Below, piece by piece: positions 28,583 through 46,407 of a stretch of DNA of 64,000 nt. The stretch is from Nitrospinaceae bacterium. GTDB taxonomy: Bacteria; UBA8248. The translations under genes were made by a program, and so were the position numbers. The DNA lies in assembly GCA_018669005.1 (NCBI GenBank), contig JABJAL010000034.1, positions 2,298 through 66,297 of the forward strand, in the 5' to 3' direction. The notes under the pieces are model-generated. The model worked only from the letters and a program-made list of their open reading frames with translations. It ran no database searches and was not told the origin of the DNA. Numbering within the stretch: position 1 is the first letter of the stretch; every line of letters begins with the position of its first letter.

Positions 28583-29383
28583 TTGCCAGTGAATACCTTG
28601 AATGAAACTGAATCGCATTTTCAGGGCAAGGTTGCTTTGATCACTGGTGCCTCGCGAGGTATTGGCGCGGCCGTGGCGAGATGCCTTGCCCGGGCGGGGG
28701 TGGATTTGGTGATCAATCACCGCGAGGGCCGGGGTCGCTCGGGTAAAATGGCCGAAGAGTTGTGCCGCGAAGCTGAGGCGGAGGGCGTACGCGCCATAGC
28801 GGTTCCTGCTGATATTGCAAAAAAAGATGCGGTCGAGGCCCTATTCACCAGGGCCGAAGAAGAATTTGGTCGCCTAGATTTTCTTGTGCTCAACGCCGCC
28901 CGCGCTCCTTTTAAGCCGTGGGAAAAACTTTTGGAGCGCGATCTCCGCCAACTGGTAGATACGAATTACTTGGGCAACGTTTTTTGCATGCAGAAGGCGA
29001 TTGCCCCTCTTTCCAGGCGGGGTGGGGCCGTTGTGTTTCTTTCGAGCCTGGGAAGCCGGTTTGTTAATCCGGACTATCCATTAGGCTCGATGAAGGCGGC
29101 GATGGAGTCAGCCGTGAAGTATTGGGCAGAAAGCTGGGGCGAGCAGGGCATTTCGGTGAACGCTGTTTGTGCCGGTCTGGTGATGACGGATTCGTTCAAG
29201 ACGCTCCGGATGGTGAACCCGGACCTGGAGAACCTGCCTGAGCGGTTTTTTCTATCGCCCGAGGAGGTTGCCGGGGTGGTCCAGTATCTGTTGGGGCCAG
29301 CGAGCGGGGTCATACGGGGGCAGACGGTGGTGGCCGACAAGGGTGTGAGCAACCGCCTACTCTGGCCATCCCCCCCAGGATGA
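28583..29383 (+). CDS. SDR family oxidoreductase (first gene of FAS/PKS-like operon)
   Basis: TGASRGIG Rossmann motif, NAA, and Y-x5-K (YPLGSMK). TTG start with aaggtaagg RBS. Confidence 0.7.
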   Translation: MPVNTLNETESHFQGKVALITGASRGIGAAVARCLARAGVDLVINHREGRGRSGKMAEELCREAEAEGVRAIAVPADIAKKDAVEALFTRAEEEFGRLDFLVLNAARAPFKPWEKLLERDLRQLVDTNYLGNVFCMQKAIAPLSRRGGAVVFLSSLGSRFVNPDYPLGSMKAAMESAVKYWAESWGEQGISVNAVCAGLVMTDSFKTLRMVNPDLENLPERFFLSPEEVAGVVQYLLGPASGVIRGQTVVADKGVSNRLLWPSPPG

Positions 29384-29537
29384 TGCATTCTTGCCTCCCC
29401 CGGTCCCGAAGTTGCACATTGCCGGGCAGAGCGTTTTAATGCAGGTCTAATGTCATGGTTGATATTGATATGGGGTCCGGGCGGTTGTCTTATCCCTTTG
29501 ATAATAGGACATTCATAAGAGGCACGAGGAGAAACAA

Positions 29538-30095
29538 ATGGCGCAGAACATGATCAGTGAAGAGCGGATCATGCAGGAAGTCTTCGACGCAATCGTTCAC
29601 ACCACCGGTGTGGACAAGGACACGATTACCCCGGATAGCTCGCTTGTGGAAGATCTGGATGTCCTGTCTCTTGATTTTCTCGATGTGAATTTTCGGCTAG
29701 AGCAGGTCTTCGGTATCAAAATGGCCCGCAGCTTTGTTCTTGAGCATGTCGAGGAAATGTTTGGCGAGGGTGTGGCAATAGATGAGAACAACGATGTCAC
29801 TGAAAAGGGTGTCGAAATTCTAAAGTTGCGCCTGACTGAGGCGGCGAACGATCTCGATCCGGGAACCCCTGTCGATGAACTTCCGGCCCTCGTTACCTCC
29901 CGAACGCTTGCAGCGGGTGTTGGTGACATTCTTGCCCACTTGCCGGACAAGAGCCCTGCCGGGGTGGACTGGAAAACGGAGGACGGCACTCACATTGTCT
30001 GCTCTGAAACCGGCAAAGCCCCTGTGTTGCCCAGCGGCGATGATGTGATCCAGAACTGGCTGAAATCTCTCCAGGAAGAAAAACAAATCTTCTAG
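29538..30095 (+). CDS. acyl carrier protein with ~100-aa C-terminal extension
   Basis: ACP core aligns to the canonical pattern (LDVLSLDFLDV vs LGADSLDTVEL), with the Ser conserved. Followed by a non-ACP C-terminal half. 185 aa. Confidence 0.55.
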   Translation: MAQNMISEERIMQEVFDAIVHTTGVDKDTITPDSSLVEDLDVLSLDFLDVNFRLEQVFGIKMARSFVLEHVEEMFGEGVAIDENNDVTEKGVEILKLRLTEAANDLDPGTPVDELPALVTSRTLAAGVGDILAHLPDKSPAGVDWKTEDGTHIVCSETGKAPVLPSGDDVIQNWLKSLQEEKQIF

Positions 30096-30125
30096 TTCAC
30101 TCGCCGCCCTGTTTTACCTCGGGAG

Positions 30126-31445
30126 TTGCCCTCGATGGCACGGCCCCAAAAACGTGTCGTAGTTACCGGCTACGGGATGATGACTCCCCTCGGGGGAGAT
30201 GTTGCCTCCAGTTTCGATGCGGCGCGCGAGGGAAAATCCGGCATCGACTATATCCGCCTTTTCGACCCGGCGAAGCTGCCCTGTCAAATTGCTGGTGAAG
30301 TGGACGACGCCTGGATTGAGGCACGCGAGGTGCCCTCCCACCGCAAACTTCTAAAATTTGCCACGCGTGGCGTCCGGATGATGCTTACAGCTACGGGAGA
30401 GTCCGCGAGCCACGCTCGCCTTAGCGAGATTGCTGATCGCTCTCGCATTGGGGTCGCGATCGGATCGCATGGCGAGCACCCTGATATTCCCCAGATGATT
30501 CAACTATTCCGCCAGTGGCGCCCGGGTGGTGGCTCCCCCTGGGAGGGCCATTGGGACTTCAGCGAGCTATTTAATTCGGGTGGCTACGATTTCCTTCAGT
30601 TCTATCGGCGAAAAATAGATGTGGCCACTTCTGTAGTGGCGACAGGGTTTGATGCCCAAGGACCGACGATTTCGGTTTGCTCGGCCTGCGCGGCGGGTGG
30701 GCAGGCAGTGGGCGAGGCACTTCGCTTGATTCGCGACGGGAAGGCGGATGCGATGATCGCGGGTGGTTGTGAATCTGCGATCTCCTATGCCGGTTTTTTT
30801 GGTTTCGTTCTCCTGACAGCGCTTGTTGAAAAGTACGAAACGCCACAGATGGCCTCGCGCCCCTTCGACCGGCGGCGAAACGGTTTTGTCATGTCTGAGG
30901 GCGCTGGCTCTTTAGTGCTTGAGGAACTTGAACACGCGCTGGCACGAAAAGCGCCAATTTTGGGCGAGGTGCTAGGCTACGGCGATTCGGCTGATGCTTT
31001 TCGCATTACTGACATGCACCCCAAGGGAGCCGGAGCCGTTCTTGCGATGCGTGGGGCGCTCGCTGATGCAGGCATTTCTATCGAAGATGTGGATTACATT
31101 AATGCGCACGGTACATCGACTCCTAAAAATGATCTCACCGAAACGACTGCGATTAAACAAGTGTTCGGCGATAGGGCGAGTAGCATTCCGATAAGTTCGA
31201 ACAAATCAATGGTCGGGCACACTATTGGAGCGGCGGGCGCAGTTGAGGCAATCTTCTCTCTTGAAGGAATGCGCCGCTCGGAGATTCTTCCCACAATTAA
31301 CTACGAGAACCCGGACCCGAAGTGCGATCTGGATTATGTTCCTAATGAAATGCGTCCCTCCGAGCACCGGGTTGTCTTGTCGAACAGCTTTGGTTTCGGC
31401 GGACAAAATGCCTCGCTTTGCTTTGGCCGCTACGAGGGTGAGTGA
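30126..31445 (+). CDS. beta-ketoacyl-ACP synthase (KS alpha-like, FabF family)
   Basis: Active-site Cys (SVCSACAAGG) and both His motifs (NAHGTSTPKND, VGHTIGAAG). Confidence 0.85.
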   Translation: MPSMARPQKRVVVTGYGMMTPLGGDVASSFDAAREGKSGIDYIRLFDPAKLPCQIAGEVDDAWIEAREVPSHRKLLKFATRGVRMMLTATGESASHARLSEIADRSRIGVAIGSHGEHPDIPQMIQLFRQWRPGGGSPWEGHWDFSELFNSGGYDFLQFYRRKIDVATSVVATGFDAQGPTISVCSACAAGGQAVGEALRLIRDGKADAMIAGGCESAISYAGFFGFVLLTALVEKYETPQMASRPFDRRRNGFVMSEGAGSLVLEELEHALARKAPILGEVLGYGDSADAFRITDMHPKGAGAVLAMRGALADAGISIEDVDYINAHGTSTPKNDLTETTAIKQVFGDRASSIPISSNKSMVGHTIGAAGAVEAIFSLEGMRRSEILPTINYENPDPKCDLDYVPNEMRPSEHRVVLSNSFGFGGQNASLCFGRYEGE

Positions 31446-32689
31446 ACTCGATGTCTACTACTTTTGCCGTCACAGGAGGCGGAATAGTCTCTGCGGCGGG
31501 AAGAGGTGTGGACGTCGCATGGGAGTCGCTTTGTAAGGGTGAAAGTTTTCTCGCCCTGGATGTTGATCCCGGCCTCTCGGGTTTTGCGCCGATAGCCTCG
31601 GCGCGATGTGCTGCCATTGACCCTGAGGAACTTGGTGCTGATCGACGCGCCGCACGAATCATGGGGCATCAAACCCACATGTTGCTCGCTACGGTATCCG
31701 AGGCGATTAAAAAATCAGGTAAAGACATTGGCGGCGAGGAGACAGCTTTTTTTGCCGGAATGGATTCGGTAGACCCTGAGGAGGGCGATCTCGTTTCCGC
31801 TGCGCTGTCCGCGCGCAAGGAGGGCGGCGTTGATTTGGATAAATTTTATGACGAGGGGATGGCGCAAATTCCGCCGCTCTGGCCGCTCGGAATGCTCAAT
31901 GCCATTGGGTTCTGTCAGGTGGCGATTCAGTTCGATTTGCGGGGCGAGAACGGAACATTCAGCCCGGGACCTGAGGCCGCTAGTCGGGCCTTGATTGAGG
32001 CAGCCGAGTCCTTGCGAGAGGAAAAGGCGGGGGTCGCGCTGGCCGCCGGGGTGAGCCCATCTGTTTCGGCTCGCTCCGTTGCCCGCTATATCAATCGTGG
32101 ATTCTTGCCTGTATCAGGTGATGGTCAATTTCCCCGTCCTTTTTCGGGTGCTGGTGTCGCTGCACTGGGAGAGGGCGCAGGCGTTTTGTTGATTGAGTCC
32201 GGGAAGGCCGCAGCGGCGAGAGGGGCTGCTAGCATGGGATTTTTGAGAGGGTGGGGTCGAGCCACCGCTCTCGATGAAGGTGCAGGGCTCAAAGAGGCGA
32301 TTAAGGATTCGATTGGCGTGGCGCTAGGATCGGCTGGATTAAGCCCTGGCGATGTGGACCTCGTGGTGGTTCACGGTGCGGGACATCCCGATGAGGATGA
32401 GGCCGAGGCTGCGGCGTTGTTAAGTGTATTTGGCGCGCGCCGCCCGTACGCACTTGCGACAAAGGGCGCCCTTGGTCATCTTTTAGGGGCCTCGCCAATT
32501 GTGGATTTGTTGCTGGCGCTCCGAGCGCTGGGTGAGGGTGTTGTATTGCCGAGCCCGGGGGTGGGCGAGATGGGGCAGGATGCCCTTGAGTTTTCGGATG
32601 TTCCCGTGGCCGCCGAAATGAAAAGGGCGCTAGTTTTGTCGAGAGGATTTGAGGGCTCATGTGCGGCGTTTTGTGCTAGCGCGGCATGA
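31442..32689 (+). CDS. ketosynthase-like chain-length-factor (KS beta/CLF) paralog lacking active-site Cys
   Basis: KS fold throughout, but the active-site Cys position reads LRGENGTFSPGP. Overlaps the upstream KS by 4 nt. Confidence 0.65.
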   Translation: MNSMSTTFAVTGGGIVSAAGRGVDVAWESLCKGESFLALDVDPGLSGFAPIASARCAAIDPEELGADRRAARIMGHQTHMLLATVSEAIKKSGKDIGGEETAFFAGMDSVDPEEGDLVSAALSARKEGGVDLDKFYDEGMAQIPPLWPLGMLNAIGFCQVAIQFDLRGENGTFSPGPEAASRALIEAAESLREEKAGVALAAGVSPSVSARSVARYINRGFLPVSGDGQFPRPFSGAGVAALGEGAGVLLIESGKAAAARGAASMGFLRGWGRATALDEGAGLKEAIKDSIGVALGSAGLSPGDVDLVVVHGAGHPDEDEAEAAALLSVFGARRPYALATKGALGHLLGASPIVDLLLALRALGEGVVLPSPGVGEMGQDALEFSDVPVAAEMKRALVLSRGFEGSCAAFCASAA

Positions 32690-32728
32690 AACGATTATCT
32701 GGTCATTGTTTTATCCGAGGAGAGAGAT

Positions 32729-33190
32729 TTGCGGTTCCTCTACTTTGATCGCATCACCGAGGTTGAGAGCGGAAAGCGAGTCAGCGGGGTAAAGACGTTC
32801 CCGTTGTCCGAGGCCTATCTCAAGGGGCATTTTACCCGAGCGCCTCTGATTCCGGGCTCGATTCTGATCGAAGCCATGGCTCAGATCACGGGCTGGCTCA
32901 TTGTCTATACCCACAAATGTGAGACGGCCTGCGTAATTTCGCTTATCAACAACGTCAAGGTGCCCATCGACCTTCGGGCGGGGACGACGGTGGATATTCA
33001 CGGTGAAATACTCGACACCGATAAACGCTGGAGCCGGTGCCGTGCGTGGGTGGAGCGCGATGGCGAGACGATTGCGAGCGCGGATCGATTTTTGTTTCCA
33101 CATTTCAAAGAGCCATATCCTGAGGAAACGGCCCAACGGTTTCGCCATTTGGGCTGGCTTGAGCCCCGCTGGGACTGGGAGGCATCGTGA
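32729..33190 (+). CDS. FabZ/FabA-like 3-hydroxyacyl-ACP dehydratase (hotdog)
   Basis: LKGHFTRAPLIPGSILIEAMAQ matches the FabZ catalytic motif. Confidence 0.75.
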   Translation: MRFLYFDRITEVESGKRVSGVKTFPLSEAYLKGHFTRAPLIPGSILIEAMAQITGWLIVYTHKCETACVISLINNVKVPIDLRAGTTVDIHGEILDTDKRWSRCRAWVERDGETIASADRFLFPHFKEPYPEETAQRFRHLGWLEPRWDWEAS

Positions 33191-34458
33191 GCGAAGTTCA
33201 CATCACCGGTATGGGCATGGTGACAGCCCTCGGTTCAGATTTGGAGACCGCATGGAGCAAAGCGCTTCGGGGTGAATCTGGTGCGCGAGCGGTTTCTTCT
33301 TTCGAGGCCGGGCGTCTTCCCATCGCGGGGGCGGGCGAGGTGTCGCTGGAGGAACTCGCCGCTCTCAAAGAGCGGCTTCCGGAGGAATACGCTGGCGAGG
33401 GGGAGCGGCGTGTGCTGTTCGCCCTCGATGCCGCGCAGAGTGCACTTGAGGATGCGGGATTGGCACTAGGAGAGGCAGATCCTGTGCGCTCGGGCGTGCT
33501 GATGGGAACCGGATTAAGTTCCTATCGCCTAGAGGATTTTGCTGCCTGGATTGGCGAGGATGATAAATTTGATACTACCCGTTTTGCGGTCGAGATCGAG
33601 AAGACCCATCCAGCGGGATATTTTCGAAATCCGCCAGAGCGGGCCACCTCGCTGATTTCTAAGTGGGCCGGCTTCAGAGGCCCATCGGCTACGATGACTT
33701 CAGCTTGCGCAGCAGCCGGGCAGGCCATTGGCCTTGGCATGCGTATGATTCGCCGGGGAGAGGCCGACGTTATCCTCTGCGGCGGGGCGGACTCGATGAT
33801 CCATCCTGTCGGGATGGCGATTTTTCTACTCCTTGGCGCAGCGACGACCACCGACGCCCCACCTGAGAATCTTTGTCGCCCCTTTGACAGGAGACGCTCG
33901 GGCCTGGTGGTTGGCGAGGGGGCCGGGGTGCTGGTTCTTGAGTCAGCCGAGCATGCCTCTCGGCGCGGGGCGAGGGTCTATGCCAAACTGTCTGGCTACG
34001 GGTCGAGCATGGATGCCTATCAGGTGACAGCGCCCGATCCAAAGGGAAGGGGCGCTGCACGCTCGATGAGTGAGGCGCTTCGTGATGCTGGGATGGCCCC
34101 CGAGGATATCGCTTATGTAAATGCCCATGGGACGGGAACGAAGCTTAATGATCCAGCCGAGACGCTGGCGATTAAAGAGGTGTTCGGCCCTTGGGCGGAA
34201 AAACTCGCTATCAGTTCGAGCAAGTCGATGATTGGCCATCTTATTGCGGCCTGCGGTGCGCCCGAGTTGATATTCACCACGCTCAGCGTGGCTCGCGATG
34301 AAGTGCATCCCACTCTGAATCTGGAAAACCCTGATCGCAAGTGCGATCTTGATTATGTCCCGAACGAGTCACGCAAGATGGCGGTTCCCGCCGCGATATC
34401 GAACTCGTTTGGTTTTGGTGGCCAGAACGTGACTCTCGTTGTCAGAAAGGCGGCATAG
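33187..34458 (+). CDS. beta-ketoacyl-ACP synthase (FabB/FabF family)
   Basis: MTSACAAAGQA active-site Cys, NAHGTGTKLND and IGHLIAACGA His motifs. Confidence 0.85.
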   Translation: MSEVHITGMGMVTALGSDLETAWSKALRGESGARAVSSFEAGRLPIAGAGEVSLEELAALKERLPEEYAGEGERRVLFALDAAQSALEDAGLALGEADPVRSGVLMGTGLSSYRLEDFAAWIGEDDKFDTTRFAVEIEKTHPAGYFRNPPERATSLISKWAGFRGPSATMTSACAAAGQAIGLGMRMIRRGEADVILCGGADSMIHPVGMAIFLLLGAATTTDAPPENLCRPFDRRRSGLVVGEGAGVLVLESAEHASRRGARVYAKLSGYGSSMDAYQVTAPDPKGRGAARSMSEALRDAGMAPEDIAYVNAHGTGTKLNDPAETLAIKEVFGPWAEKLAISSSKSMIGHLIAACGAPELIFTTLSVARDEVHPTLNLENPDRKCDLDYVPNESRKMAVPAAISNSFGFGGQNVTLVVRKAA

Positions 34459-35211
34459 ATGAACATTGATTTGAGCGGAAAGGTGGCGCTTGTAACCGGA
34501 GGCGGGCGCGGCATAGGGCGTGCGTGCGCTCTGGCGCTCGCGGCGTCGGGCGCACAGGTGGCGATCAACTACAGCGCCTCGCAAGAAGCGTCCGAGGAGG
34601 TGAAGGCCGAAATTGAAAAGGCCGGTGGCCGGGCCGAGTGCTATCAGGCGGATGTCTCCTCATTCGAGCAGGTCGAGGCCATGTTCGAGAAGGTGAAGGA
34701 GGATTTTGGCACGCTGGATATTCTGGTGAACAACGCAGGTGTCATCAAGGACACGCTTTTGCTACGTATGAAGCCTGCCGACTGGGATAAAGTTATCGGG
34801 GTGAGCCTGAATGGCGTTTACAACTGCACGAAAATGGCGGCCGAGATTATGATGCGCGCGCGCACAGGGTGTGTCGTGAATATTTCCTCGATCATTGGAA
34901 TCATGAGTGGTGGCGGGCAGACGAACTATGCCGCCGCCAAGGCGGGGGTGATTTCATTCACACGGGCCTGCGCGGCTGAAATGAGCGGGCGCGGGCTGCG
35001 CTTCAACGCCGTTTTGCCCGGTATGATTGAAACCGACATGAGCGAGGTTGCCCGAAAACACGCGGGCGATAAAATTATGGAGCGAATTCCTTCGAAACGG
35101 TTCGGGCAGCCAGAAGATATTGCCGGTATTGTCGTATTTCTCTCCTCGTCGGCGTCGAGCTACATCAATGGCGAGGCGATTACAGTTGACGGCGGCATGC
35201 ACATCGGTTGA
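34459..35211 (+). CDS. fabG: 3-oxoacyl-ACP reductase FabG
   Basis: TGGGRGIG, NNAG, and S...Y-AAAK catalytic tetrad (NYAAAKAG). Confidence 0.85.
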   Translation: MNIDLSGKVALVTGGGRGIGRACALALAASGAQVAINYSASQEASEEVKAEIEKAGGRAECYQADVSSFEQVEAMFEKVKEDFGTLDILVNNAGVIKDTLLLRMKPADWDKVIGVSLNGVYNCTKMAAEIMMRARTGCVVNISSIIGIMSGGGQTNYAAAKAGVISFTRACAAEMSGRGLRFNAVLPGMIETDMSEVARKHAGDKIMERIPSKRFGQPEDIAGIVVFLSSSASSYINGEAITVDGGMHIG

Positions 35212-35227
35212 GGAGCGGAGAATTAGA

Positions 35228-35635
35228 GTGCGTTTGTATCAGGGCGTTGATTTAATAGAGATTGATCGGATTAAGGTGGCGCATGATCGCCAAGGGGCTT
35301 TCGGAAAAGATATTTTTACGGAGGCCGAACTGGCATATTGCAATTCTCGGCCCGATCCGTATCCGCATTTAGCTGGGCGCTTTGCGGCCAAGGAGGCATG
35401 CCTCAAAGCCTTCGGGGTGGGAATGGGTGGATTCGGCGCCATCGGTCGTTTTCAGGAGATTGAAGTGGAATCCACGCCCTCGGGCAAACCTACTCTCCTT
35501 CTGCACGGGTCGATGGAGAAAATGCGAATGCGGCTCAAGATTGATCAGGTGACGGTTTCGATTAGCCACGCCGATAGTTTCGCTGTAGCGACGGTGATGA
35601 TGCTAGGCGCAGCCGCGGGCGTTGAGGAAGAATAA
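35228..35635 (+). CDS. acpS: holo-ACP synthase (4'-phosphopantetheinyl transferase AcpS)
   Basis: GVDLIEIDRI N-terminus, FAAKEAxxKA and SISH motifs. GTG start. 136 aa. Confidence 0.75.
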   Translation: MRLYQGVDLIEIDRIKVAHDRQGAFGKDIFTEAELAYCNSRPDPYPHLAGRFAAKEACLKAFGVGMGGFGAIGRFQEIEVESTPSGKPTLLLHGSMEKMRMRLKIDQVTVSISHADSFAVATVMMLGAAAGVEEE

Positions 35636-35650
35636 CAATGCGGGAGGAGC

Positions 35651-36106
35651 ATGATGCGCTATTTGCTGGTTGATCGCGTGACTTCATGGGAGCGCGGAGC
35701 CACCATGGTAGGCGTCAAGAACGTCACCATGAGCGAGGATTTCTTGGAATTTCACTTTCCGCGCTTTCCTGTGATGCCTGGCTCGATGATTCTTGAGGCG
35801 CTCGTTCAACTAACAGGATGGCTTGAGGCGGCGAGTTCTGATTTTTCCAGATGGTTTCTTCTTGAGCAGGTTAAGACGGTTAAATATTACGGTTTCGCCC
35901 TGCCGGGCGACCAGATTGAACTCAGAGTCGAGGCAGCCGGGGAAGATGAAGGGCTTGCTCTCTACAAGGGTCTTGCCCAGGTAGAGGGCGAGCGAAAAGT
36001 GGTGGTAGATTTTGCCGGTAGGATGGTTGATCTCAAAGACTATGAAGATCCTGCTGAGCAGGCGCACCTTTTTAAAATATTAAATCGAGAAATAACACTC
36101 TCTTAA
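35651..36106 (+). CDS. second FabZ-like hotdog dehydratase
   Basis: FLEFHFPRFPVMPGSMILEALVQ hotdog catalytic motif. Confidence 0.7.
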   Translation: MMRYLLVDRVTSWERGATMVGVKNVTMSEDFLEFHFPRFPVMPGSMILEALVQLTGWLEAASSDFSRWFLLEQVKTVKYYGFALPGDQIELRVEAAGEDEGLALYKGLAQVEGERKVVVDFAGRMVDLKDYEDPAEQAHLFKILNREITLS

Positions 36107-36119
36107 AAGAGCGGTTGAT

Positions 36120-37415
36120 ATGATGGAAGGCAGGGAAGTCTGGATTACGGGTGCCGGGATGCTCTCCCCTCTTGGGGCTGGCGTCGATGCGAATTGGGAG
36201 GGGCTTCGGTCCGGGCGGCGCGGCGTCGTTCGACAGCCTCAGCAGAATGCGGCCCCGTTTCCCGATAACTTTCTCTATTTCGGCACGGTGGCAGGTCATG
36301 AAGAGCCGCCAGAGGTGCCGCCCAATCTCAACAGCCAGAGGAAATTTCTGAACCGCTCCTCGATCCTTGGGCTCCACGCGGCCGCAGAGGCGATTGAGAG
36401 CGCAGGTGTTGATTTGCTGTCCATGCCGCCTGAGCGAAAATCGCTTTATGTCGGCTCTGGTGACTACACACGTCTTGAGTATCTCGATTTTTACCAGTCC
36501 TTTGCCGAGACCGCTGGTCCCTATTGGGGTCTTCCCGATCCAGAGGAGTTGAACGAGGTGGCGCTACATCAGGTGAACCCGTTTTATCTGCTGGAAGGGC
36601 TGGCGAATAATCTTTTCAGCTTCCTAACGGCGAGCTACGAAATTATGGGCACGAACGGGAGCATTGCGAGCCTGTCCTCGTGTGGTGCGCAAGCTCTTGA
36701 GGGTTGTGATCGGGCTCTTCGCTGGGGGAAGGCGGATCTCGGCCTGGTGGTGGGTTGCGGGTGCTGGATCAGCGCGTTGATTCGTTTCGAACTTGACGGA
36801 CTGGGAATACTTTCCAGAGCCCACGATGGAGTCGACTCGTTCAGGCCACTGGACAGGCGGCGCGATGGGTTTTTCCCGTCCGAGGGGGCTGCTGCTCTGG
36901 TGCTAGAGGTGGCGGAGGTTGCAGAGGCGCGAGGCGCAAAACCAATTGGAAGAATACTGGGCACGGGAAATTTTCAGGAAGTTTCGTCGGGTGCCCATAT
37001 CTCGGTGCCAGGCGATTCTGTCAGCCGAGCGAGCCGGGCGGCGATGGGCGAGGGCGATAAGTCCCCCACCGACCTTTCTTTTGTCCTTCCGCATGGGAGC
37101 GGCACCAAAAAGGGAGATCGCGCCGAAATGCGGGCGCTCAAGGAATTTCTGAGCGGGAGCGAAGTGCCCCTTGCAGCCTGGAAACCCCATACGGGCCACA
37201 TGGGTTCGGCTAGTGATGTGGGTGAAATGATTCTCGGTCTCAAGGCGCTCCGGGAGGGTGCTCTTCCACCTACCCTGGGCTTCGAGACGGCTGAAAAAGA
37301 ATTCGACAATCTCGATATCGCTGCCGAGGAAAGAGTGATCGAGGGGGACTCGTTTCTTTCGCTGAGTCATGGCCTTGGCGGCCAGTCTTCCGCCACACTT
37401 TTATCGGCACCGTGA
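36120..37415 (+). CDS. third beta-ketoacyl synthase-family protein
   Basis: KS N-terminus (VWITGAGMLSPLG), Cys (SSCGAQ), and His motifs (LPHGSGTKKGD, TGHMGSASD). Divergent from FabF/FabB. Confidence 0.7.
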   Translation: MMEGREVWITGAGMLSPLGAGVDANWEGLRSGRRGVVRQPQQNAAPFPDNFLYFGTVAGHEEPPEVPPNLNSQRKFLNRSSILGLHAAAEAIESAGVDLLSMPPERKSLYVGSGDYTRLEYLDFYQSFAETAGPYWGLPDPEELNEVALHQVNPFYLLEGLANNLFSFLTASYEIMGTNGSIASLSSCGAQALEGCDRALRWGKADLGLVVGCGCWISALIRFELDGLGILSRAHDGVDSFRPLDRRRDGFFPSEGAAALVLEVAEVAEARGAKPIGRILGTGNFQEVSSGAHISVPGDSVSRASRAAMGEGDKSPTDLSFVLPHGSGTKKGDRAEMRALKEFLSGSEVPLAAWKPHTGHMGSASDVGEMILGLKALREGALPPTLGFETAEKEFDNLDIAAEERVIEGDSFLSLSHGLGGQSSATLLSAP

Positions 37416-38434
37416 GTCCGGTAGTCGGGCGGGCCGCGAAGCCCCGCAAAAAACGACGCCGTAGCAAGGATAAAAGCCCCCTTCAGCAGAATGCTGAATT
37501 TTTCGCTGTCTTTGGTGCCCTCTCGATCATTCGATGGATCCCGCTCTGGTTGTGTAATATCCTCGCCAGACTTGTCGGGGCTGCTGTTTTCCAGCTAGCT
37601 CCACGTCGCCGAAAAATTCTTCTGAATAATCTTGAAATCGCATTTCCAGACATGAGCGAGGACGAGCGGGCCCGTATGGCGCGGGCGAGTTGTCGCTCGT
37701 TTGTGCTGACCGGGCTTGAAAGCGTCAAGTATCTCTACCGTTTTCGAATCGATGACGCGGAAAAGGAAGTTCGCCGGATGATCGATGGGGTGGAGTCTGT
37801 TTTCGATCAAGCGAGGCAGCTGCACGATGAGGCGGGTGGGTGCATTTTCGTAGTGCCTCATTTGGGTAACTGGGAGCTTATCGTGCACGGTGCCACAATT
37901 GCGCGAATACCAGTGACGGTTGTTGTGAGACCTCTCGACAATCCGAAACTAGAAAAACATCTATTCGAGATGCGCTCAGGTTCAGGGCAAGAGATTCTTG
38001 CAAAGCGAAATGCGCTCTTCTACCTCAGGACAGCACTACGAAAGGGAAGATCGGTTGGTCTGCTGGCGGATCAGCATGCCGGGATGAAGGGAATCGACGT
38101 GCCGTTTTTCGGGAAACCAGCGAGCACCACGACGGGACCTGCTGCCCTCGCCATTTCCTTTGGTCGCCCGATTATGCTGGTTGCTTGTGTGCGAAAGCCT
38201 GGAGGAGGAGCATATGAGGTGCTTTTGAGCGACCCGATTGTGCCCGACACAGAGGCGGAATCGCTTGTTGAGATCGAGCGGCTGACGACGCTTATGAACG
38301 TAGAGATTGAAAAGTTTGTCCGTAAATGCCCGGATCAATATTTGTGGCTGCACGATCGCTGGAAGCTAACGAAACTTTGGGGGCGATCGGCAGAATTTCT
38401 TGCGGAAAAAGAAAAAGAAGAAAAAAACGATTAA
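37412..38434 (+). CDS. LpxL/HtrB/MsbB-family lysophospholipid (lipid A-type) acyltransferase
   Basis: N-terminal TM helix, HLGNWE (HX4E/D) catalytic motif, and C-terminal QYLWLHDRWK signature. Confidence 0.75.
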   Translation: MSPVVGRAAKPRKKRRRSKDKSPLQQNAEFFAVFGALSIIRWIPLWLCNILARLVGAAVFQLAPRRRKILLNNLEIAFPDMSEDERARMARASCRSFVLTGLESVKYLYRFRIDDAEKEVRRMIDGVESVFDQARQLHDEAGGCIFVVPHLGNWELIVHGATIARIPVTVVVRPLDNPKLEKHLFEMRSGSGQEILAKRNALFYLRTALRKGRSVGLLADQHAGMKGIDVPFFGKPASTTTGPAALAISFGRPIMLVACVRKPGGGAYEVLLSDPIVPDTEAESLVEIERLTTLMNVEIEKFVRKCPDQYLWLHDRWKLTKLWGRSAEFLAEKEKEEKND

Positions 38435-38447: not shown

Positions 38448-38840
38448 CTATTTTTTTAATGCTGTGAAAAAACGGTTGTCCATGACTTCAAGCTTTCCCT
38501 CAAGCTTTTCAGTGCACTCACAGCTTCCGCAACTAGGATAGCCTTCGCATTTTTCGAGCGTCGTGGTGTAGCGAATGTCGAAATCCTCGAAATATTCTCG
38601 CCAATAGGGAAGCTCCTCTAGTAGCTCTCCGCCGGGGCCGAACGCCTCTCGGCAATAACAAGGCTCTATCCAGCGTACCTGACCGTTATCCAAGAGGCGT
38701 GCGCTCTTCATGCATTTGATGTAGGTGGGGTAGGCGATGGAGCCCTTGCCCAGAGAGCCTGACTCGACCGCCTCAAGCAGTGCCCGCTCTTTGCCTTTTA
38801 TGACGAAAGCCCTGACGAGATAGCGCACCAGAAACCTCAA
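38448..38840 (-). CDS. hypothetical cysteine-rich protein
   Basis: 130 aa with CYC and CEGYPSCGSCEC clusters. No confident family. Confidence 0.35.
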   Translation of the reverse strand: MRFLVRYLVRAFVIKGKERALLEAVESGSLGKGSIAYPTYIKCMKSARLLDNGQVRWIEPCYCREAFGPGGELLEELPYWREYFEDFDIRYTTTLEKCEGYPSCGSCECTEKLEGKLEVMDNRFFTALKK

Positions 38841-39035: not shown

Positions 39036-40703
39036 ATGACTGAAATGTCAGGTGCGCGGTATTTGTGTGAAATTATGAAAGCCTACGGTGTGAGCACGTA
39101 TTTTTTCATGCCCTCGATGCTGAGCCACACGCTGGCGCTTATGGATGACTATCCTATCCGGCGGATTATGACCCACGGAGAGAAGGCTGCTGTTTATATG
39201 GCGGACGGCTATGCACGCGCTTCGGGCAAACCTGGTATCTGTGGAGCCCAGGCGATTGGGGCCTCGAACCTCGCTGCCGGGCTCAGAGACGCCCATATGG
39301 CGCACAGCCCGGTCATCTCCCTCGTTGGTGGGCGCTTTTCCGAGCAGAAATATCGCTTCCCCTATCAAGAGATTGATGATTTTTCGATGTTCGAGTGCAC
39401 AACCAAGGCGAACTATCAGATTGATACTGCAGATCGCATCCCCGATATGATGCGGCAGGCTTTCCGTGAGGCGACATCGGGAAACCCGGGTCCGGTTAAC
39501 CTTCAGTTCTACGGCAACCACGGCGAGATCGAGCGCGATATTATCGATCAAGAAGTCATCGTCGAGGAGCGCCACACGAGCATTCCCGCCTACCGGCCCC
39601 GACCTGACATAGCGGATGTCGAAAAAGTGGCCGAGCGCCTCCAGGCGGCCGCAAGACCGATTATCGTGGCTGGCGGCGGTGCCCGGGTGTCGGGCGCGGG
39701 AGCCGAGATCACTGCACTCGCAGAGAAGCTTCAGATTCCCATCTTGAATTCAACCGGTGCGATGGCGCTCACCCCGGAGAACCATCCGCTCTATTGCGGT
39801 GTGCCGGGTACGTATTCGAGAAGCTGCTCGAATAAAGCAATGCTCGCCTCAGATTTGGTGCTGTTCATTGGTTCCGAGGTAGGAGGTCAGCTTACCCATT
39901 TTTGGAAGCTGCCCAAGCCTGGTACCGAAATAATTCAAATTGGCATCGACGCGAACGATCTTGGGCGCAACTACCCGAACTCGGTTTCGGTTTTGGGTGA
40001 TGCGAAAGTGACGGTTGAGGCTCTGGTTGGCGCAGTGAATAAGAGAGAGGCGGGTTCCTGGGTGGCCGAGGTGCAGAAGATGGTGGCCGACTGGCGGGCC
40101 GAGATTGAGCCGTATCGAAACTCTGACGCCACACCGATGCGCCCGGAGCGTGTCCTCAAAGAGCTTAGCGATTGCCTGCCCGAGGATGTTTTGGTCGTTA
40201 GCGATACCGGACACTCGGCGATGTGGCTTTCCCAGCAGTTGTGGATGGACTCCACGAAATGGGACATCATCCGATGCGCAGGCTCTCTTGGCTGGGGCTT
40301 TCCTGCCTCGCTCGGGGCCAAGTGTGCTTTCCCGGATAGGCCGGTCGTCTGTTTCACCGGCGACGGCGGCTATTGGTATCACCTCCAGGAGATGGAAACG
40401 GCCGTGCGCTTCGGAATCAACTCGGTGACGGTTGTGAACAACAACAAATCGATGAATCAGGAGATCGGCGTTTACACGAAAGCCTACGATGGGAATCCCT
40501 CGGATCAGTGGGGTACGATGTGGAAGTTCACAGACGTTAACCTCACTAAAATTGCCGAGGACATGGGTGCCTTTGCCATTCGCGTGGAAAAACCTGAGGA
40601 CATTGCGCCAGCGATGGACAAGGCTTTTGCCGCAGGAAGGCCCGCCCTCGTCGAGGTTATGACTGACATCGACGCTCTTTCGCCGGGCGCATCGCTGAGT
40701 TAG
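39036..40703 (+). CDS. thiamine pyrophosphate-dependent enzyme (acetolactate synthase large subunit / 2-keto-acid decarboxylase superfamily)
   Basis: 555 aa with TPP_N, central and TPP_C domains (GDG...NN TPP-binding motif region FTGDGGYWY...VVNNN). Confidence 0.7.
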   Translation: MTEMSGARYLCEIMKAYGVSTYFFMPSMLSHTLALMDDYPIRRIMTHGEKAAVYMADGYARASGKPGICGAQAIGASNLAAGLRDAHMAHSPVISLVGGRFSEQKYRFPYQEIDDFSMFECTTKANYQIDTADRIPDMMRQAFREATSGNPGPVNLQFYGNHGEIERDIIDQEVIVEERHTSIPAYRPRPDIADVEKVAERLQAAARPIIVAGGGARVSGAGAEITALAEKLQIPILNSTGAMALTPENHPLYCGVPGTYSRSCSNKAMLASDLVLFIGSEVGGQLTHFWKLPKPGTEIIQIGIDANDLGRNYPNSVSVLGDAKVTVEALVGAVNKREAGSWVAEVQKMVADWRAEIEPYRNSDATPMRPERVLKELSDCLPEDVLVVSDTGHSAMWLSQQLWMDSTKWDIIRCAGSLGWGFPASLGAKCAFPDRPVVCFTGDGGYWYHLQEMETAVRFGINSVTVVNNNKSMNQEIGVYTKAYDGNPSDQWGTMWKFTDVNLTKIAEDMGAFAIRVEKPEDIAPAMDKAFAAGRPALVEVMTDIDALSPGASLS

Positions 40704-40853
40704 AGAACTCGTTCGGGCGGACTCTTGAAGTAAGGTGTTTTTTTGAGAAAAAGCCGAGTAGTAGCGACATAGTCTTTGCTGAATACGCCAGGTATATGTT
40801 CGGATGAATATTTTAATATGCTTGGGGAAAGCGTGGGTTTAGTCTTAAGGCGC

Positions 40854-40899
40854 AGGAAGGATGGTGGTGCGATGGCCACCATCCTTCCTGTTTTTTTTT
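40854..40899 (+). terminator. rho-independent terminator
   Basis: 14-bp perfect stem aggaaggatggtgg/ccaccatccttcct followed by a T9 run. Confidence 0.8.
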
Positions 40900-40910
40900 A
40901 AGAGTAGTGT

Positions 40911-41786
40911 TTACTTGTCTTTGCCTTCGTATACCTCAAAGACGCGGGCGGCATCGTCCTTGCCCCATCCGGCAGCTTCTGCGCGCTGGAACATTTTTCG
41001 AGCCGCAGGGACGACCTGGAGTTCCACACCGTTTTCTTTCGCCAGATCAATGGCAAGGCCCATGTCCTTAACGAATATTTCGACCGCGCCACGAGCTTCC
41101 CAATCGCGGTTCATAATTCGAGGAGCGGCATTTTCCAGCATCGTGCCCTTTACGGTGCTTGCCCGCAGGCACTCCATCATCGCATCGTCATCAAGACCTG
41201 CTCGCCGACCGGTCAAAAGCATTTCGCATATCAAGGCCGTGCAGGAATTAACAAATAAATTGGTGACGACCTTCATGGTCGCGCCTTTGCCGTTTTCTCC
41301 CATGTGGACAACGCTTGAGGTGATCGAGTCGAGTATCGGATATACTCGGTCAAAGGCCTCTTTAACCCCACCCACCATCATCGAAATCTGGCGTGAGGCC
41401 ACGCGGGGATGAGAACCTGATATCGGTGCGTCAAGCATTTTGATGCCCGTGGTGGCGAGACGCTTGCCCATATCTGCCTGAAAGGCGGGTTTCATGGTGC
41501 TCATTTCGACGTGAATTAAACCCTTCTTTCCGGCCGCGACGATACCATTTGGCCCGAACGTATTTTCCTCGATGTGGGCTTCCTTCAGGAGAATTGAGAA
41601 GGTGATGTCGCACTGTTCGGCAATTTCTTTGGCCGATGCGGCGCGTTTCCCGCCCAGCCCCTCGAGCATTTTCATCCGGCCCTCATCAACGTCGTAGCCG
41701 AGCATCTCGTGTCCGTCTGCAAGAAACTCCTTTGAGAGCGCAAGGCCCATTTTCCCTAATCCGATCATTCCAAGTTTCTCGCCCAC
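40911..41786 (-). CDS. NAD(P)-dependent oxidoreductase, 3-hydroxyisobutyrate/tartronate-semialdehyde dehydrogenase family
   Basis: GMIGLGKMG Rossmann motif and 6PGDH-like NAD-binding domain signature. Confidence 0.75.
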   Translation of the reverse strand: MGEKLGMIGLGKMGLALSKEFLADGHEMLGYDVDEGRMKMLEGLGGKRAASAKEIAEQCDITFSILLKEAHIEENTFGPNGIVAAGKKGLIHVEMSTMKPAFQADMGKRLATTGIKMLDAPISGSHPRVASRQISMMVGGVKEAFDRVYPILDSITSSVVHMGENGKGATMKVVTNLFVNSCTALICEMLLTGRRAGLDDDAMMECLRASTVKGTMLENAAPRIMNRDWEARGAVEIFVKDMGLAIDLAKENGVELQVVPAARKMFQRAEAAGWGKDDAARVFEVYEGKDK

Positions 41787-41851
41787 CTCAATAGCTCCTT
41801 ATAATTTAGTTCAAGGTTTTACAGTTAATTTCCAATTGATGGTTCTTTGTT

Positions 41852-42910
41852 CTAAAGGGTGACGGCTTTACCCTCCTTAACCGAACGATCCGAGGCCATT
41901 GTCAGTTCGAGTACTTGCCGGGCGTCTGCCCCGGTGCAGAGGCCAACTCCGCCGATGCCCAGGACGTGGCGGATGAAGGCATCGGATTCTTCTTTCATCG
42001 GCCCAAAGAATTCGCCCAGCATGAAATCGCCTGGCATTGCCGAGCCGAGGAAGGCGACGTTTACTTCGTGCTCCGGGGTGTAGGGGCAGGGGATTGGTTG
42101 GCCCGTTGCAAGAACAACGTCCCGGTGCGCATCGTCGATGTTGAGCGTTCCCTCAGTCCCCTGAAGGTCGATTTCCATCGATGCTGTGTAAGCAGGCCAG
42201 TGATGAGGAGGCAGCCAGCTTGTCCCCAGGGTGGCGACGCTCCCGTCGTCAAAGGTAACGATCAGCCACTGGAAATCATCTCGGTTGTAGGGTTTGAAAA
42301 CAAAGCTCGCCGCCTTGGCATAGACTTCGACCGGTTTTTTCCCCTCCATGTACCAAAGGATAAGATCAACCATGTAGGTCAGGGTGTTGATTGACGGCGT
42401 GGTGTTTGGTGAACGGCGGGCGACGGCCTCGCCGACGGCGCGGGTGACGTAGATTTTTCCCATCGCCATGACAATGTTGCCAAGCTGTCCCGACATGGCG
42501 GCCTGTTTGGCGTGTAGGTAGCGGCGGCGGAAGCGCTGGGTGTAGCCCACGAAAATCTCGGCGCCGCTTTTTTCGGCTTTGGCCAAAATGTCGTCTGCCT
42601 CGTCTAGATCAAGAACAAATGGTTTTTCGATCAGGACAGGCTTGCCGAGTTCGGCCGCAAGGGCGGCCGGGGCGTGATGGTATTCCTCATCGGTTGATAT
42701 AATGACCGCGCCCACGCGATCGCTTCGAATGGCCTCCTCGAAATTTGTTGTTGCCATGTCCGCACCGACGGCCTCAGAGAGAGTGTCGAGTTTTTCGGGC
42801 ACCTTGTCGCAGATGGCCAGGTAATCGACCTGGGGTATCTGAGAGCATGAGTGGGCCCTGAGTGTGCCGATCCCGCCCGCTCCGATGACTGCTACGCCTG
42901 TGGATTCCAT
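41852..42910 (-). CDS. Gfo/Idh/MocA family oxidoreductase
   Basis: VAVIGAGGIG N-terminus and EKPF motif. Confidence 0.75.
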   Translation of the reverse strand: MESTGVAVIGAGGIGTLRAHSCSQIPQVDYLAICDKVPEKLDTLSEAVGADMATTNFEEAIRSDRVGAVIISTDEEYHHAPAALAAELGKPVLIEKPFVLDLDEADDILAKAEKSGAEIFVGYTQRFRRRYLHAKQAAMSGQLGNIVMAMGKIYVTRAVGEAVARRSPNTTPSINTLTYMVDLILWYMEGKKPVEVYAKAASFVFKPYNRDDFQWLIVTFDDGSVATLGTSWLPPHHWPAYTASMEIDLQGTEGTLNIDDAHRDVVLATGQPIPCPYTPEHEVNVAFLGSAMPGDFMLGEFFGPMKEESDAFIRHVLGIGGVGLCTGADARQVLELTMASDRSVKEGKAVTL

Positions 42911-42966
42911 GTTTCTCCCCTATAAAATGAAAGTGATTAGTTCGGTTCATCGGACTGCCAGTCATG

Positions 42967-43737
42967 TCATTCTGGTTTGCGCTTTTTAAAAAAAGCCGCG
43001 ATGCCCTCCTTCGCATCCTCTGATTCGAGAAGATTGGGCATGAGTTTGCTCATGAGGCGAACGGCTTTGTTGTACTCGATTCCCTCGATTTCATAAAACG
43101 CCCGCTTGCCCATCTGAACGGCATACGGGCTTGTCTCGGCGATCTGGGTGGCGAAGGCGGTTAGTTCGTCCTCGAATTGCCCGGCTGGCGTGGTCTTAGT
43201 CACAAGGCCCATGGCGACGGCCTCCGCCGCGCCGAAGCGGCGACCTGTGACGAATAACTCATACGCCCGGCGCGCACCCACGGCGCGAATCACCGGGGGC
43301 ATGATGGTGCAGGGCCAGAAGCCAAGCTTAATCTCGGGAACGCCGAATAAGGCTTCCTCCTCGGCGACAGCAAAGTCTGCCGCCGCCGTCAGCGCTGTTC
43401 CGCCGCCTAGCGCGTAGCCCTGGGGGGCCGCAATAACAGGTTTGCTGATCTGGGAGAAGGCCAGGAAAAAATCGGCGGTGTAGCCGAAGTGGCGTTCCCG
43501 CTCGGGCCCGGATTTGTCACCAAATGAACTCACGTCAGAGCCCGCGCAGAAAGTGGGTCCCTCACCGCGGACAATAATCACCCGCACCTCGGGCGACTCG
43601 TCCAACGTAAAAAGCCAGCGCCGCATTCCTCTATACATGGTGTCGGTCATCGCGTTTCGCTTCTCGGGCCGGTCGATGGTGAGTGTGGCGATGTGGTCGC
43701 TGATGTCCCAACTTAGGTTATCGACGGGTTCGAGCAT
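42967..43737 (-). CDS. enoyl-CoA hydratase/isomerase (crotonase family)
   Basis: ITLNRPEKRNA-like N-terminus and the crotonase-fold oxyanion motifs (CAGSD, ALGGG). Confidence 0.8.
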   Translation of the reverse strand: MLEPVDNLSWDISDHIATLTIDRPEKRNAMTDTMYRGMRRWLFTLDESPEVRVIIVRGEGPTFCAGSDVSSFGDKSGPERERHFGYTADFFLAFSQISKPVIAAPQGYALGGGTALTAAADFAVAEEEALFGVPEIKLGFWPCTIMPPVIRAVGARRAYELFVTGRRFGAAEAVAMGLVTKTTPAGQFEDELTAFATQIAETSPYAVQMGKRAFYEIEGIEYNKAVRLMSKLMPNLLESEDAKEGIAAFFKKRKPE

Positions 43738-43995
43738 TTAGGTGCCTTTTCGTTGCGAGAAAAGTGCCTGCGGGCCGGAAATCGGCAACCATCGAGGGCG
43801 TGCCAGCCAGCAGAGGTGTCAGGAACGAAGCGGTTTCCCGGAATGAGAAAATTGTATCGGGTATTTGGCATAGGTCAAGACTCGGAAGTCTCTTGATTCT
43901 GGCGTTAATTTTATGTTTGCGCGGCATCCCGAAGAGACCGATAATCTGGGGGGAACCCGGAAAATCCGATCTTATCTTGAATTCAGGAGACCGAT

Positions 43996-44973
43996 ATGCG
44001 CATTGATGTCCAGACGCACCATATGCCGGACGGTTATGTGAAGGCCCTTGCCGAACGTTCAGATTATCCCTTCTTCGAGCGGGAGGGCGATAGCTGGTTT
44101 GCCCAGGGCACCACGCATGCCCGGCTGCCGATGGCCCCCTCGATACTGGATATCGGGCTTAAAATTGAAGAGATGGATGCGCATAATATCGATTTGGCAT
44201 TGATCAGCCTCAATATTCCGGGCCCCGATCTCGCGGCGGACCCCAAGGACGCCGACGAGCTGGCGCGCATCGGAAATGACGGCATCGCCGAGGCCGTTGC
44301 GAAGCACCCGGATCGCTTCAAAGGATTTGCCAACCTTGGTTTTGGCGACATCGACGCGACCTGCCGGGAGCTTGAGCGATGCATCGACGAACTAGGTTTC
44401 ATCGCCCTTCAGGTATTCGCCTTCATCGGTGGAAAGCGCCCCCTCGACGATCCCGCCTTCGCCCCCGTCTGGGCGTTGTTGGCCGAGCGCAATGTCCCGC
44501 TCGTTCTGCATCCGGGGCCCTCGCCCGCTGGTGCCGTTTATGCGGACTACTGGCTAGGACCCCTGGTTGGATTTCTCTTCGATGAAAGCATCGCCGCGCT
44601 TCGGCTCATTTTCTCGGGCATCATGGAGTGCCACCCCAGGCTCAAGGTGCTCCTGCCTCACGGCGGGGCAACGCTGCCGCTTCTCATTGGCCGGGTGGAC
44701 CGTCTTTCGAGCAACCGCCCGGGCCCACGGGACAACATCTCCCATGCACCGAGTCATTATTTCGAGCGCATTCACACTGATGCCGTAGCACATTCCACAA
44801 CGGCGCTCAGCCTCGCGCTTCAGGAAATGGGTGCCGACCGGCTCATGTTTGCCTCGGACGCCCCCTGGGTGCCCGTTGAGGCGCATGTGAAGATTGTCGG
44901 GGAGTTGGGACTCTCAGAGCCCGACGCCGATAAAATCTGGAGTGGTACGGCGAAAAAGTTTTTCGAAATCTAG
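43996..44973 (+). CDS. amidohydrolase-2 family metal-dependent hydrolase/decarboxylase
   Basis: MRIDVQTHH metal-binding start and TIM-barrel amidohydrolase_2 pattern. Confidence 0.65.
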   Translation: MRIDVQTHHMPDGYVKALAERSDYPFFEREGDSWFAQGTTHARLPMAPSILDIGLKIEEMDAHNIDLALISLNIPGPDLAADPKDADELARIGNDGIAEAVAKHPDRFKGFANLGFGDIDATCRELERCIDELGFIALQVFAFIGGKRPLDDPAFAPVWALLAERNVPLVLHPGPSPAGAVYADYWLGPLVGFLFDESIAALRLIFSGIMECHPRLKVLLPHGGATLPLLIGRVDRLSSNRPGPRDNISHAPSHYFERIHTDAVAHSTTALSLALQEMGADRLMFASDAPWVPVEAHVKIVGELGLSEPDADKIWSGTAKKFFEI

Positions 44974-44983
44974 GCGGCGGCGT

Positions 44984-46390: not shown

Positions 46391-46407
46391 GCGCTACGAA
46401 ACAATAA

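Follow-up and report, generated by a model that had tools for sequence, protein, structure and literature searches.

The described systems which come closest to the locus studied here are the AcpXL/LpxXL system of rhizobia, the aryl-polyene (APE) clusters, the mycobacterial fatty acid synthase (FAS) II and the 'Cluster I' of anammox bacteria. The locus itself is an operon of eleven genes at positions 28583-38434 of a 64-kb stretch of DNA from a Nitrospinaceae bacterium (contig JABJAL010000034.1, positions 2,298 to 66,297 of the forward strand); we call this whole stretch the window. The AcpXL/LpxXL system provides lipid A with an ester-linked C26-C34 (omega-1)-hydroxy fatty acid, and in rhizobia and Brucella this very long lipid A chain makes the outer membrane stiffer and has effects on stress tolerance and on recognition by the immune system. 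The rhizobial acpXL-lpxXL cluster is described in PMC11901934. Like it, our operon combines in one unit a dedicated acyl carrier protein (ACP), a FabZ-like dehydratase, an active ketosynthase (KS) with a partner deprived of the catalytic Cys, and a terminal acyltransferase of the LpxL family. With the APE clusters (E. coli CFT073 and Xenorhabdus, ApeA-R) it has in common the type II organization, a KS with a Cys-less chain length factor (CLF), two hotdog dehydratases, a FabG-like ketoreductase (KR), dedicated carrier protein(s) and acyltransferases which anchor the product to a lipid. We propose, with a probability of roughly 0.55, that the operon encodes a self-contained, dedicated type II FAS coupled to a lipid A-type late acyltransferase.

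We confirmed by the listing of open reading frames (ORFs) of the window that eleven tightly spaced ORFs, all on the + strand, occupy this interval. They were assigned by Pfam and NCBIfam, as follows (window coordinates are used throughout):

28583..29383, + strand: short-chain dehydrogenase/reductase (SDR), probable FabL-type enoyl-ACP reductase; the gene callers' start is 28589
29538..30095, + strand: long ACP of 185 aa; PF00550
30126..31445, + strand: KS1, FabF-like ketosynthase with Cys-His-Lys-His; TIGR03150, 435 bits
31442..32689, + strand: CLF, Cys-less KS homologue; PF00109 and PF02801
32729..33190, + strand: DH1, FabZ-like 3-hydroxyacyl-ACP dehydratase; PF07977, FabZ NCBIfam models below cut-off
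33187..34458, + strand: KS2, FabF-like ketosynthase; TIGR03150, 416 bits
34459..35211, + strand: FabG-type 3-oxoacyl-ACP reductase; TIGR01830 and NF009466
~35228..35635, + strand: AcpS-type holo-ACP synthase of 135 aa; PF01648 and TIGR00516
35651..36106, + strand: DH2, second FabZ-like dehydratase; PF07977, 69 bits
36120..37415, + strand: KS3, KS-family protein with Ser-His-Lys-His by residue alignment
37412..38434, + strand: LpxL-family late acyltransferase; PF03279, 178.3 bits versus a cut-off of 22.3

The original prediction, a reading of the DNA letters alone, had described eleven packed, co-directional genes with overlaps of 4 nt and had assigned them to the SDR, ACP, KS, CLF, dehydratase, FabG, AcpS and LpxL families; both the layout and the family list were borne out. 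The 4-base overlaps are at DH1/KS2 and KS3/acyltransferase, and at KS1/CLF too if a GTG start is taken. Gene calls on identical contigs place the true start of AcpS at about 35228, not at 35048. The operon is bordered by a divergent PAC2 gene on one side and by a convergent small Cys-rich gene on the other. Rfam and tRNA scans gave no match inside it, and a promoter/terminator scan of the operon gave a site count no higher than in shuffled sequence.

The family of the long ACP comprises 220 species-level genomes, among them those of Nitrospinota, Tectomicrobia, Nitrospirota (Thermodesulfovibrionia), NC10, Binatia, Syntrophobacteraceae, Acidobacteriota and Chloroflexota. The nearest relatives of the window are a metagenome-assembled genome (MAG) of a nitrite oxidiser from an oxygen-deficient zone and other Nitrospinota MAGs, and identical copies of the operon occur in several marine MAGs. 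We drew the counts of architectures from 80 fetched loci. All eleven genes are found in the same order in about 40 independent loci, which span Nitrospinota, Tectomicrobia, Thermodesulfovibrionia, NC10 and Chloroflexota. This order in so many independent genomes, together with the conservation of the catalytic residues (see below), puts the operon far beyond chance: it is real and widely conserved. In the reduced clusters of Syntrophobacteraceae and Binatia, CLF and KS2 are jointly lost while KS1 and KS3 are kept, and in many Nitrospirota only the first three genes (SDR, ACP and KS1) stand at the site, the SDR being a constant companion of the long ACP and of KS1.

The coexistence of full, reduced and trio-only forms points to an accessory system, which bears on the reading of the operon as the housekeeping FAS of the organism in an unusual arrangement. 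This reading could call on the fact that KS1 and KS2 exceed the cut-off of the NCBIfam FabF subfamily (427.6 and 403.7 versus 387 bits), that the FabG exceeds the cut-off of a FabG subfamily (NF009466, 255 versus 222 bits) and that a full cycle of KS, KR, dehydratase and enoyl reductase (ER) is encoded. But the gene order differs from that of the E. coli locus and the cluster holds no fabD, fabH, plsX or acc gene, the ACP of 185 aa reaches 32 bits on the AcpP equivalog TIGR00517 where the cut-off is 70, and the cluster ends in an LpxL-type transferase. Moreover, the contig which bears the cluster in one Nitrospirota locus (L045) also has a separate fabZ, as part of an lpxD-fabZ-lpxA operon. 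Of all the explanations weighed here, we consider this one the least credible.

We aligned the members of each family with E. coli FabF, FabZ, AcpP and LpxL in order to read their catalytic residues. The Cys-His-Lys-His set and the gate Phe are kept in every member of the KS1 family (81/81) and of the KS2 family (43/43). In the CLF of the window, Pro stands in place of the catalytic Cys, whose absence had been predicted, and in 50 relatives this position holds A, P, S or G but in no case Cys; the His residues of the CLF are partly lost while the Lys is retained. The position is never Gln either, and no cyclase or aromatase was found in the locus, so that these marks of an aromatic type II polyketide synthase (PKS) are absent. 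The gene which had been taken as a third KS has to be read differently. KS3 has Ser at the catalytic Cys position in 40/40 sequences, with His, Lys and His invariant, and its gate Phe is replaced by I, L or V in the same 40-member family; a change of this Phe to Ala nearly abolishes condensation (review PMC9006962). The invariant Ser and the lost gate Phe rule out KS3 as a third condensing enzyme; judged by these residues, it is probably a non-condensing partner or a malonyl-ACP decarboxylase. Hence the operon contains two active KS and two Cys-less, CLF-like partners.

An exhaustive HMMER search of a library of 1.84 billion proteins is consistent with this picture. The 11 representatives nearest to KS3 all have S-H-K-H, and the next-nearest tier is made of Cys-less CLF-type proteins, including a KS-CLF fusion. 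This fusion (P0242, 878 aa) is a natural union of an active KS (C-H-K-H) with a Cys-less partner (G-H-K-H), and supports the reading of KS3 as a partner. In a neighbour-joining (NJ) tree, the families of KS1, CLF, KS2 and KS3 are each monophyletic in at least 194 of 200 bootstraps, KS1 in all 200.

The other enzymes of the cycle also appear to be intact. The SDR has as its top NCBIfam match the FabL equivalog (178 bits versus a cut-off of 328) and as its top match in the PDB the FabL of B. subtilis (3oic, E 7.7e-34), ahead of the FabGs; its Y-x5-K motif, of a non-classical kind, does not vary among 80 members of the family. From its sequence we read it as a probable FabL-type enoyl-ACP reductase. 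The FabG has its catalytic residues, is 40% identical to E. coli FabG and scores 295.7 bits on TIGR01830, where the cut-off is 297.75. The catalytic His and Glu of FabZ are kept in 52/52 sequences of DH1 and 50/50 of DH2, and the top PDB matches of DH2 are FabZ structures. The constant presence of the FabL-like SDR argues for a reduced or saturated chain and against a polyene.

The original prediction had seen in the operon an APE-like system, and in its KS/CLF pair with two dehydratases the hallmark of such clusters. In favour of a type II PKS for a lipid-anchored polyene pigment, of the aryl-polyene kind or another, one may cite that the operon has a KS and its Cys-less partner, a pair of hotdog dehydratases, a FabG-like KR, an ACP of its own and an acyltransferase; DH2 has a precomputed Pfam ApeI-like match, and the ACP gives 34 bits against ApeF. 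We compared the window proteins by BLAST with the Ape proteins of E. coli CFT073 and with the FAS and Lpx proteins of E. coli. For each of them, the score against FabF, FabZ, FabG or LpxL exceeds that against the Ape counterpart. KS1 and KS2 reach 261 and 249 bits against FabF, compared to 205 and 197 against ApeR and 157 and 178 against ApeO; DH1 and DH2 reach 54 and 75 bits against FabZ, compared to just 25 against ApeI for DH1; and the FabG reaches 199 bits against E. coli FabG, compared to 150 against ApeQ. No window protein matched ApeC, ApeP or ApeD (the CLF does not match ApeC), and ApeD belongs to a different family from the PF03279 enzyme of the window. The ApeI-like match of DH2 lies under a stronger FabA/FabZ match, and no Ape-named NCBIfam family figures among the matches listed for either dehydratase or any KS.

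The accessory genes tell the same story. As had been noted from the start, the starter enzyme and export genes of APE clusters are missing: genes for a CoA ligase, a thioesterase, a glycosyltransferase, LolA and MMPL are all absent from the roughly 10 kb to each side of the operon, and no methyltransferase gene lies nearby. The sole AMP-binding gene (16249-18204) is of the acetyl-CoA-synthetase type and lies 10 kb away. The operon has, on the other hand, a probable enoyl reductase which APE clusters do not share. On the direct comparison with CFT073 we reject membership in the aryl polyenes; the absent accessory genes and the FabL-like SDR also speak against it, and an aryl-polyene-like or other polyene pigment as the product we regard as very improbable. 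The KS/CLF pair is not specific to APE clusters, as the rhizobial FabF1XL and FabF2XL form a pair of the same kind (see below), and the operon is better compared with the acpXL-lpxXL cluster. What stands of the original prediction is a specialised type II FAS-like operon with probable delivery to a lipid acceptor by an LpxL-family enzyme; its aryl-polyene framing is not supported. This matters in practice, since genome-mining tools may file the cluster under aryl polyenes or specialised metabolites and such a label would mislead.

The ACP gives 21.1 bits on PF00550. Its AcpXL-like core is followed by a C-terminal extension which is also conserved and some 100 residues long; all of 88 sequences have the phosphopantetheine Ser. 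Of 68 relatives, 39 have a CxxC..CxxC zinc ribbon in the extension; the ribbon was lost in the clade of the window. The top NCBIfam match of the ACP is the AcpXL model NF005079, with 47.8 bits versus a cut-off of 83 (the AcpXL of Shinella has 190), and its top sequence match in the PDB is 2kw2, the specialised ACP RPA2022 of AcpXL type (E 1.6e-8). The AlphaFold2 model has a predicted local distance difference test of 91 and a predicted template modelling score of 0.86, and its best fold matches are 3lmo and 2kw2, with 123 aligned columns versus about 60 for ordinary ACPs, the E-values being weak. By sequence, the protein is AcpXL-like, yet outside AcpXL by the curated threshold. The AcpS encoded in the operon (PF01648, 62 bits; TIGR00516, 82 bits versus a cut-off of 59.8) is presumably dedicated to it.

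The last protein of the operon belongs, by its sequence, to the LpxL/HtrB family of lipid A late acyltransferases (PF03279). Its HxxxxE motif (HLGNWE, aligned to HFLTLE of E. coli LpxL) is kept in 38/38 sequences. Its top NCBIfam match is the LpxXL model NF005120 (148.9 bits versus a cut-off of 273; the LpxXL of Shinella has 491). The acyltransferases of the clusters form a clade of their own (193/200 in an NJ tree), nearer to non-proteobacterial LpxL-like proteins than to LpxXL, and the nearest out-group proteins, at most 39% identical, sit in waaA-lpxK-lpxL-heptosyltransferase operons. Lipid A genes also stand beside the cluster in some of its carriers. The SDR-ACP-KS1 unit comes after bamA-skp-lpxD-fabZ-lpxA-lpxI-gnnA-gnnB in 14 loci of Nitrospirota, and in one Binatia genome the cluster follows lptD. 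The Nitrospirota neighbourhood lies as follows:

upstream 1-8800, in L008, L043, L045, L066, L072, L081 and others: lipid A neighbourhood

One of the 14, L045, contains at least the first seven genes of the cluster within the fetched stretch. The gnnA/gnnB-like genes imply a lipid A backbone of the GlcN3N type in those Nitrospirota.

For the comparison with rhizobia we used as a reference the acpXL-fabZXL-fabF2XL-fabF1XL-lpxXL locus of Shinella, taken from a chromosome-sized record of PLSDB; the Sinorhizobium KS was left out, as fabF1XL is apparently frameshifted there. The Shinella proteins served to set the identity of the models (NF005079 AcpXL, NF005120 LpxXL, NF005076 FabF1XL and NF005084 FabF2XL). 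In a set including the E. coli FAS and Lpx proteins and the Ape proteins, the AcpXL and LpxXL of Shinella pick the ACP and the acyltransferase of the window as their best matches, and these two window proteins, conversely, have the AcpXL and LpxXL models as their top NCBIfam matches. In the FabF2XL of Shinella (L102, 3160-4365), Glu takes the place of the Cys, Ser that of the first His and of the Lys, and Gln that of the second His. Deprived of all four catalytic residues, this protein shows that the rhizobial system too makes use of an active and a dead KS. There are also differences. The window cluster adds a FabG of its own, a FabL-like reductase and an AcpS, as well as a further dehydratase and a further KS/partner pair; the rhizobial locus has a zinc-dependent alcohol dehydrogenase (Zn-ADH) gene which the window cluster does not; the ACP of the window is double the length of AcpXL, with an extension of zinc-ribbon type; and the hosts are Nitrospinota, Nitrospirota and others, whereas AcpXL/LpxXL belongs to Alphaproteobacteria. 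KS1 reaches 352.7 bits on the FabF1XL model (cut-off 629), and CLF and KS3 reach 24 and 48 bits on the FabF2XL model (cut-off 320). Orthology with the rhizobial proteins is supported neither by these scores below the cut-offs nor by the NJ trees (200 bootstraps). This means that the similarity to the rhizobial system is one of analogy, or is very distant.

Two observations were made on the records in which this locus was sought. NZ_CP104127.1 (3.5 Mb) and NZ_CP069303.1 (4.6 Mb) of PLSDB are chromosome-sized replicons labelled as plasmids and almost unannotated, and they hold the rhizobial acpXL-lpxXL locus. Two other plasmid matches proved to be isolated lpxL-like genes and not clusters.

We can now describe how the operon may work, if it is a dedicated FAS serving lipid A. 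The embedded AcpS would phosphopantetheinylate the ACP of 185 residues, and malonyl groups would come from the housekeeping FabD, outside the cluster. KS1 and KS2 would pair with the Pro-type CLF and with the Ser-His-His KS3, probably as two KS/CLF-like heterodimers which would set the length of the chain; one of the two may prime the synthesis by decarboxylating malonyl-ACP. The joint loss of CLF and KS2 would point to the pairs KS1:KS3 and KS2:CLF, the adjacency of the genes to KS1:CLF. The FabG, the two FabZ-like dehydratases and the FabL-like reductase would complete each cycle. As this reductive cycle is complete, the chain would be saturated or nearly so, and it is probably unusually long. 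Finally, the LpxL-family enzyme would move the chain from the special ACP onto lipid A as a secondary acyl chain. Such a system would have been assembled independently of the rhizobial one, with its own reductases and AcpS.

Several facts weigh against this proposal. The ACP, the KS and the acyltransferase all remain under the AcpXL, FabF1XL and LpxXL equivalog cut-offs, and the NJ trees join KS1 with FabF1XL in 2 of 200 bootstraps and the cluster acyltransferases with LpxXL in none of 200. The lipid A neighbourhoods reflect few independent events, an opposite-strand gene intervenes in those of Nitrospirota, and the window itself has no such neighbourhood. Some relatives are without the acyltransferase, such as L010, which has the FAS genes. 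The length of the chain cannot be read from the sequence. Lastly, the addition of a B12 radical SAM or condensation enzyme in relatives hints at other or further chemistry.

These facts bring us to the reading in which the FAS is the same but the acceptor or the chain is not the one proposed: the acceptor could be another glycolipid, an ornithine or lyso-lipid, or a hopanoid conjugate, or the chain could be special in another way, being (omega-1)-hydroxylated, methylated or partly unsaturated. PF03279 includes enzymes which do not act on lipid A, and the window protein reaches 93 bits on the model of the phosphatidylinositol mannoside acyltransferase; with two dehydratases and two KS/partner sets, a double bond could be added or a hydroxyl kept; and both the locus without acyltransferase and the added enzymes (a radical SAM gene embedded in L060, a condensation-domain enzyme after the cluster in three phyla) would fit this reading. 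Against this reading stand the best family matches of the acyltransferase, each of them a lipid A late acyltransferase, the waaA-lpxK operons of the out-groups and the lipopolysaccharide-gene neighbourhoods in Nitrospirota and Binatia; the window cluster itself has no radical SAM or condensation gene. We regard this reading as rather unlikely, and retain the lipid A-directed FAS.

The radical SAM genes deserve a description, as observations in their own right. In L060, a Nitrospinota MAG, a gene for a B12-binding radical SAM protein with DUF4070 (8684-9988) lies between DH1 and KS2, and in L008 another B12 radical SAM gene (13477-15306) comes after the SDR-ACP-KS1 trio. These loci may be variants which modify the chain. 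A free-standing protein of 430-446 aa with a Condensation domain of the type found in nonribosomal peptide synthetases lies directly after the acyltransferase or KS3 in NC10, Binatia and Nitrospiraceae:

19224-20549 of L082: Condensation-domain protein
15268-16608 of L053: Condensation-domain protein
18115-19407 of L046: Condensation-domain protein

Radical SAM genes are also a mark of the anammox 'Cluster I', which is composed of amxACP, amxFabZ, amxFabF2/amxFabFmut, PDH and a B12 radical SAM gene, and in which the active and dead FabF form a KS/CLF-like heterodimer able to decarboxylate malonyl-ACP (bioRxiv 10.64898/2026.05.19.726425). A special ACP, a FabZ-like dehydratase and a pair of active and inactive FabF are thus common to that cluster and to ours, and B12 radical SAM genes stand in or next to some of the related loci, so that one may think of a lipid pathway akin to 'Cluster I', either ladderane-like or with some other remodelling by radical SAM enzymes. 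But the window and most of its relatives have no radical SAM or phytoene-desaturase-like gene, and the five loci with radical SAM genes include three which are copies of one contig. The anammox cluster, for its part, lacks an LpxL-type acyltransferase, a KR, an ER and an AcpS, whereas the window has all four. Such a pathway seems to us extremely unlikely for the operon.

The mycobacterial FAS-II (AcpM, KasA/KasB, MabA, HadABC, InhA) offers another likeness, at the level of organization: an elongation system with a C-terminally extended ACP, two ketosynthases, paired hotdog dehydratases, its own KR and an ER of the SDR type. AcpM is among the better matches of the window ACP. There is, however, no orthology at the level of sequence, the product is meromycolate and not a lipid A acyl chain, and the mycobacterial system has neither Cys-less KS partners nor an LpxL-type transferase, while the window has both.

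A search of the literature gave no description of the cluster and no report of very-long-chain lipid A in the phyla which carry it, and a targeted search gave nothing on the lipid A acyl chains of Nitrospinota, Nitrospirota or NC10. For the long ACP, the conserved Ser-His-His KS homologue and the double KS/partner set, we found no characterised precedent, and the first two are of interest to enzymologists, the long ACP for its zinc ribbon. Nitrospinota are the main nitrite oxidisers of the ocean, and Nitrospirota and NC10 are key in the nitrogen and sulfur cycles; to our knowledge, little seems to be known of the envelopes of these bacteria. If the proposal is true, the solution of rhizobia was built independently in these phyla, by a convergent engineering of the envelope, and new lipid biomarkers can be predicted for oxygen-deficient zones. 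We find it possible, and put it forward tentatively, that a lipid system spanning several phyla is at hand, in which a FAS with a zinc-ribbon-bearing ACP and two KS/partner heterodimers, one of them with Ser-His-His, makes de novo a very long or unusual chain for lipid A or for a new outer-membrane lipid, independently of AcpXL/LpxXL. It could then account for the orphan long-chain hydroxy-fatty-acid biomarkers of oxygen-deficient waters, and its radical SAM and condensation variants could lead to further modified lipids.

Some minor observations concern the surroundings of the operon. In trio-only loci, KS1 is followed by 0.7-1.6 kb without a long ORF or a remnant of a cluster gene and with a content of about 43% in G and C (L008, 11860-13477; L043, 11861-12577); in particular, the gap of 1.6 kb in L008 holds no degraded cluster genes. 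Next to the acyltransferase of the window lies the small gene mentioned above:

38448..38840, - strand: Cys-rich protein, 126-130 aa; no Pfam or NCBIfam match

It is convergent and comes right after the acyltransferase in 24 loci of Nitrospinota and Tectomicrobia; whether it belongs to the system is uncertain. Further downstream, a block of metabolic genes at 39036-47517 encodes a thiamine pyrophosphate (TPP) enzyme, a dehydrogenase resembling 3-hydroxyisobutyrate dehydrogenase, a GFO/IDH/MocA oxidoreductase, an enoyl-CoA hydratase, an amidohydrolase_2, a MaoC dehydratase and a Zn-ADH. The closest MAGs have this block in synteny; in other phyla it lies outside the conserved cluster. Finally, we must note a TPP riboswitch at 14246-14346 on the + strand of the window (Rfam RF00059, 65.7 bits versus a gathering score of 54.3); thiS-thiG-thiE-like genes lie downstream of it, at about 14.4-16.1 kb.

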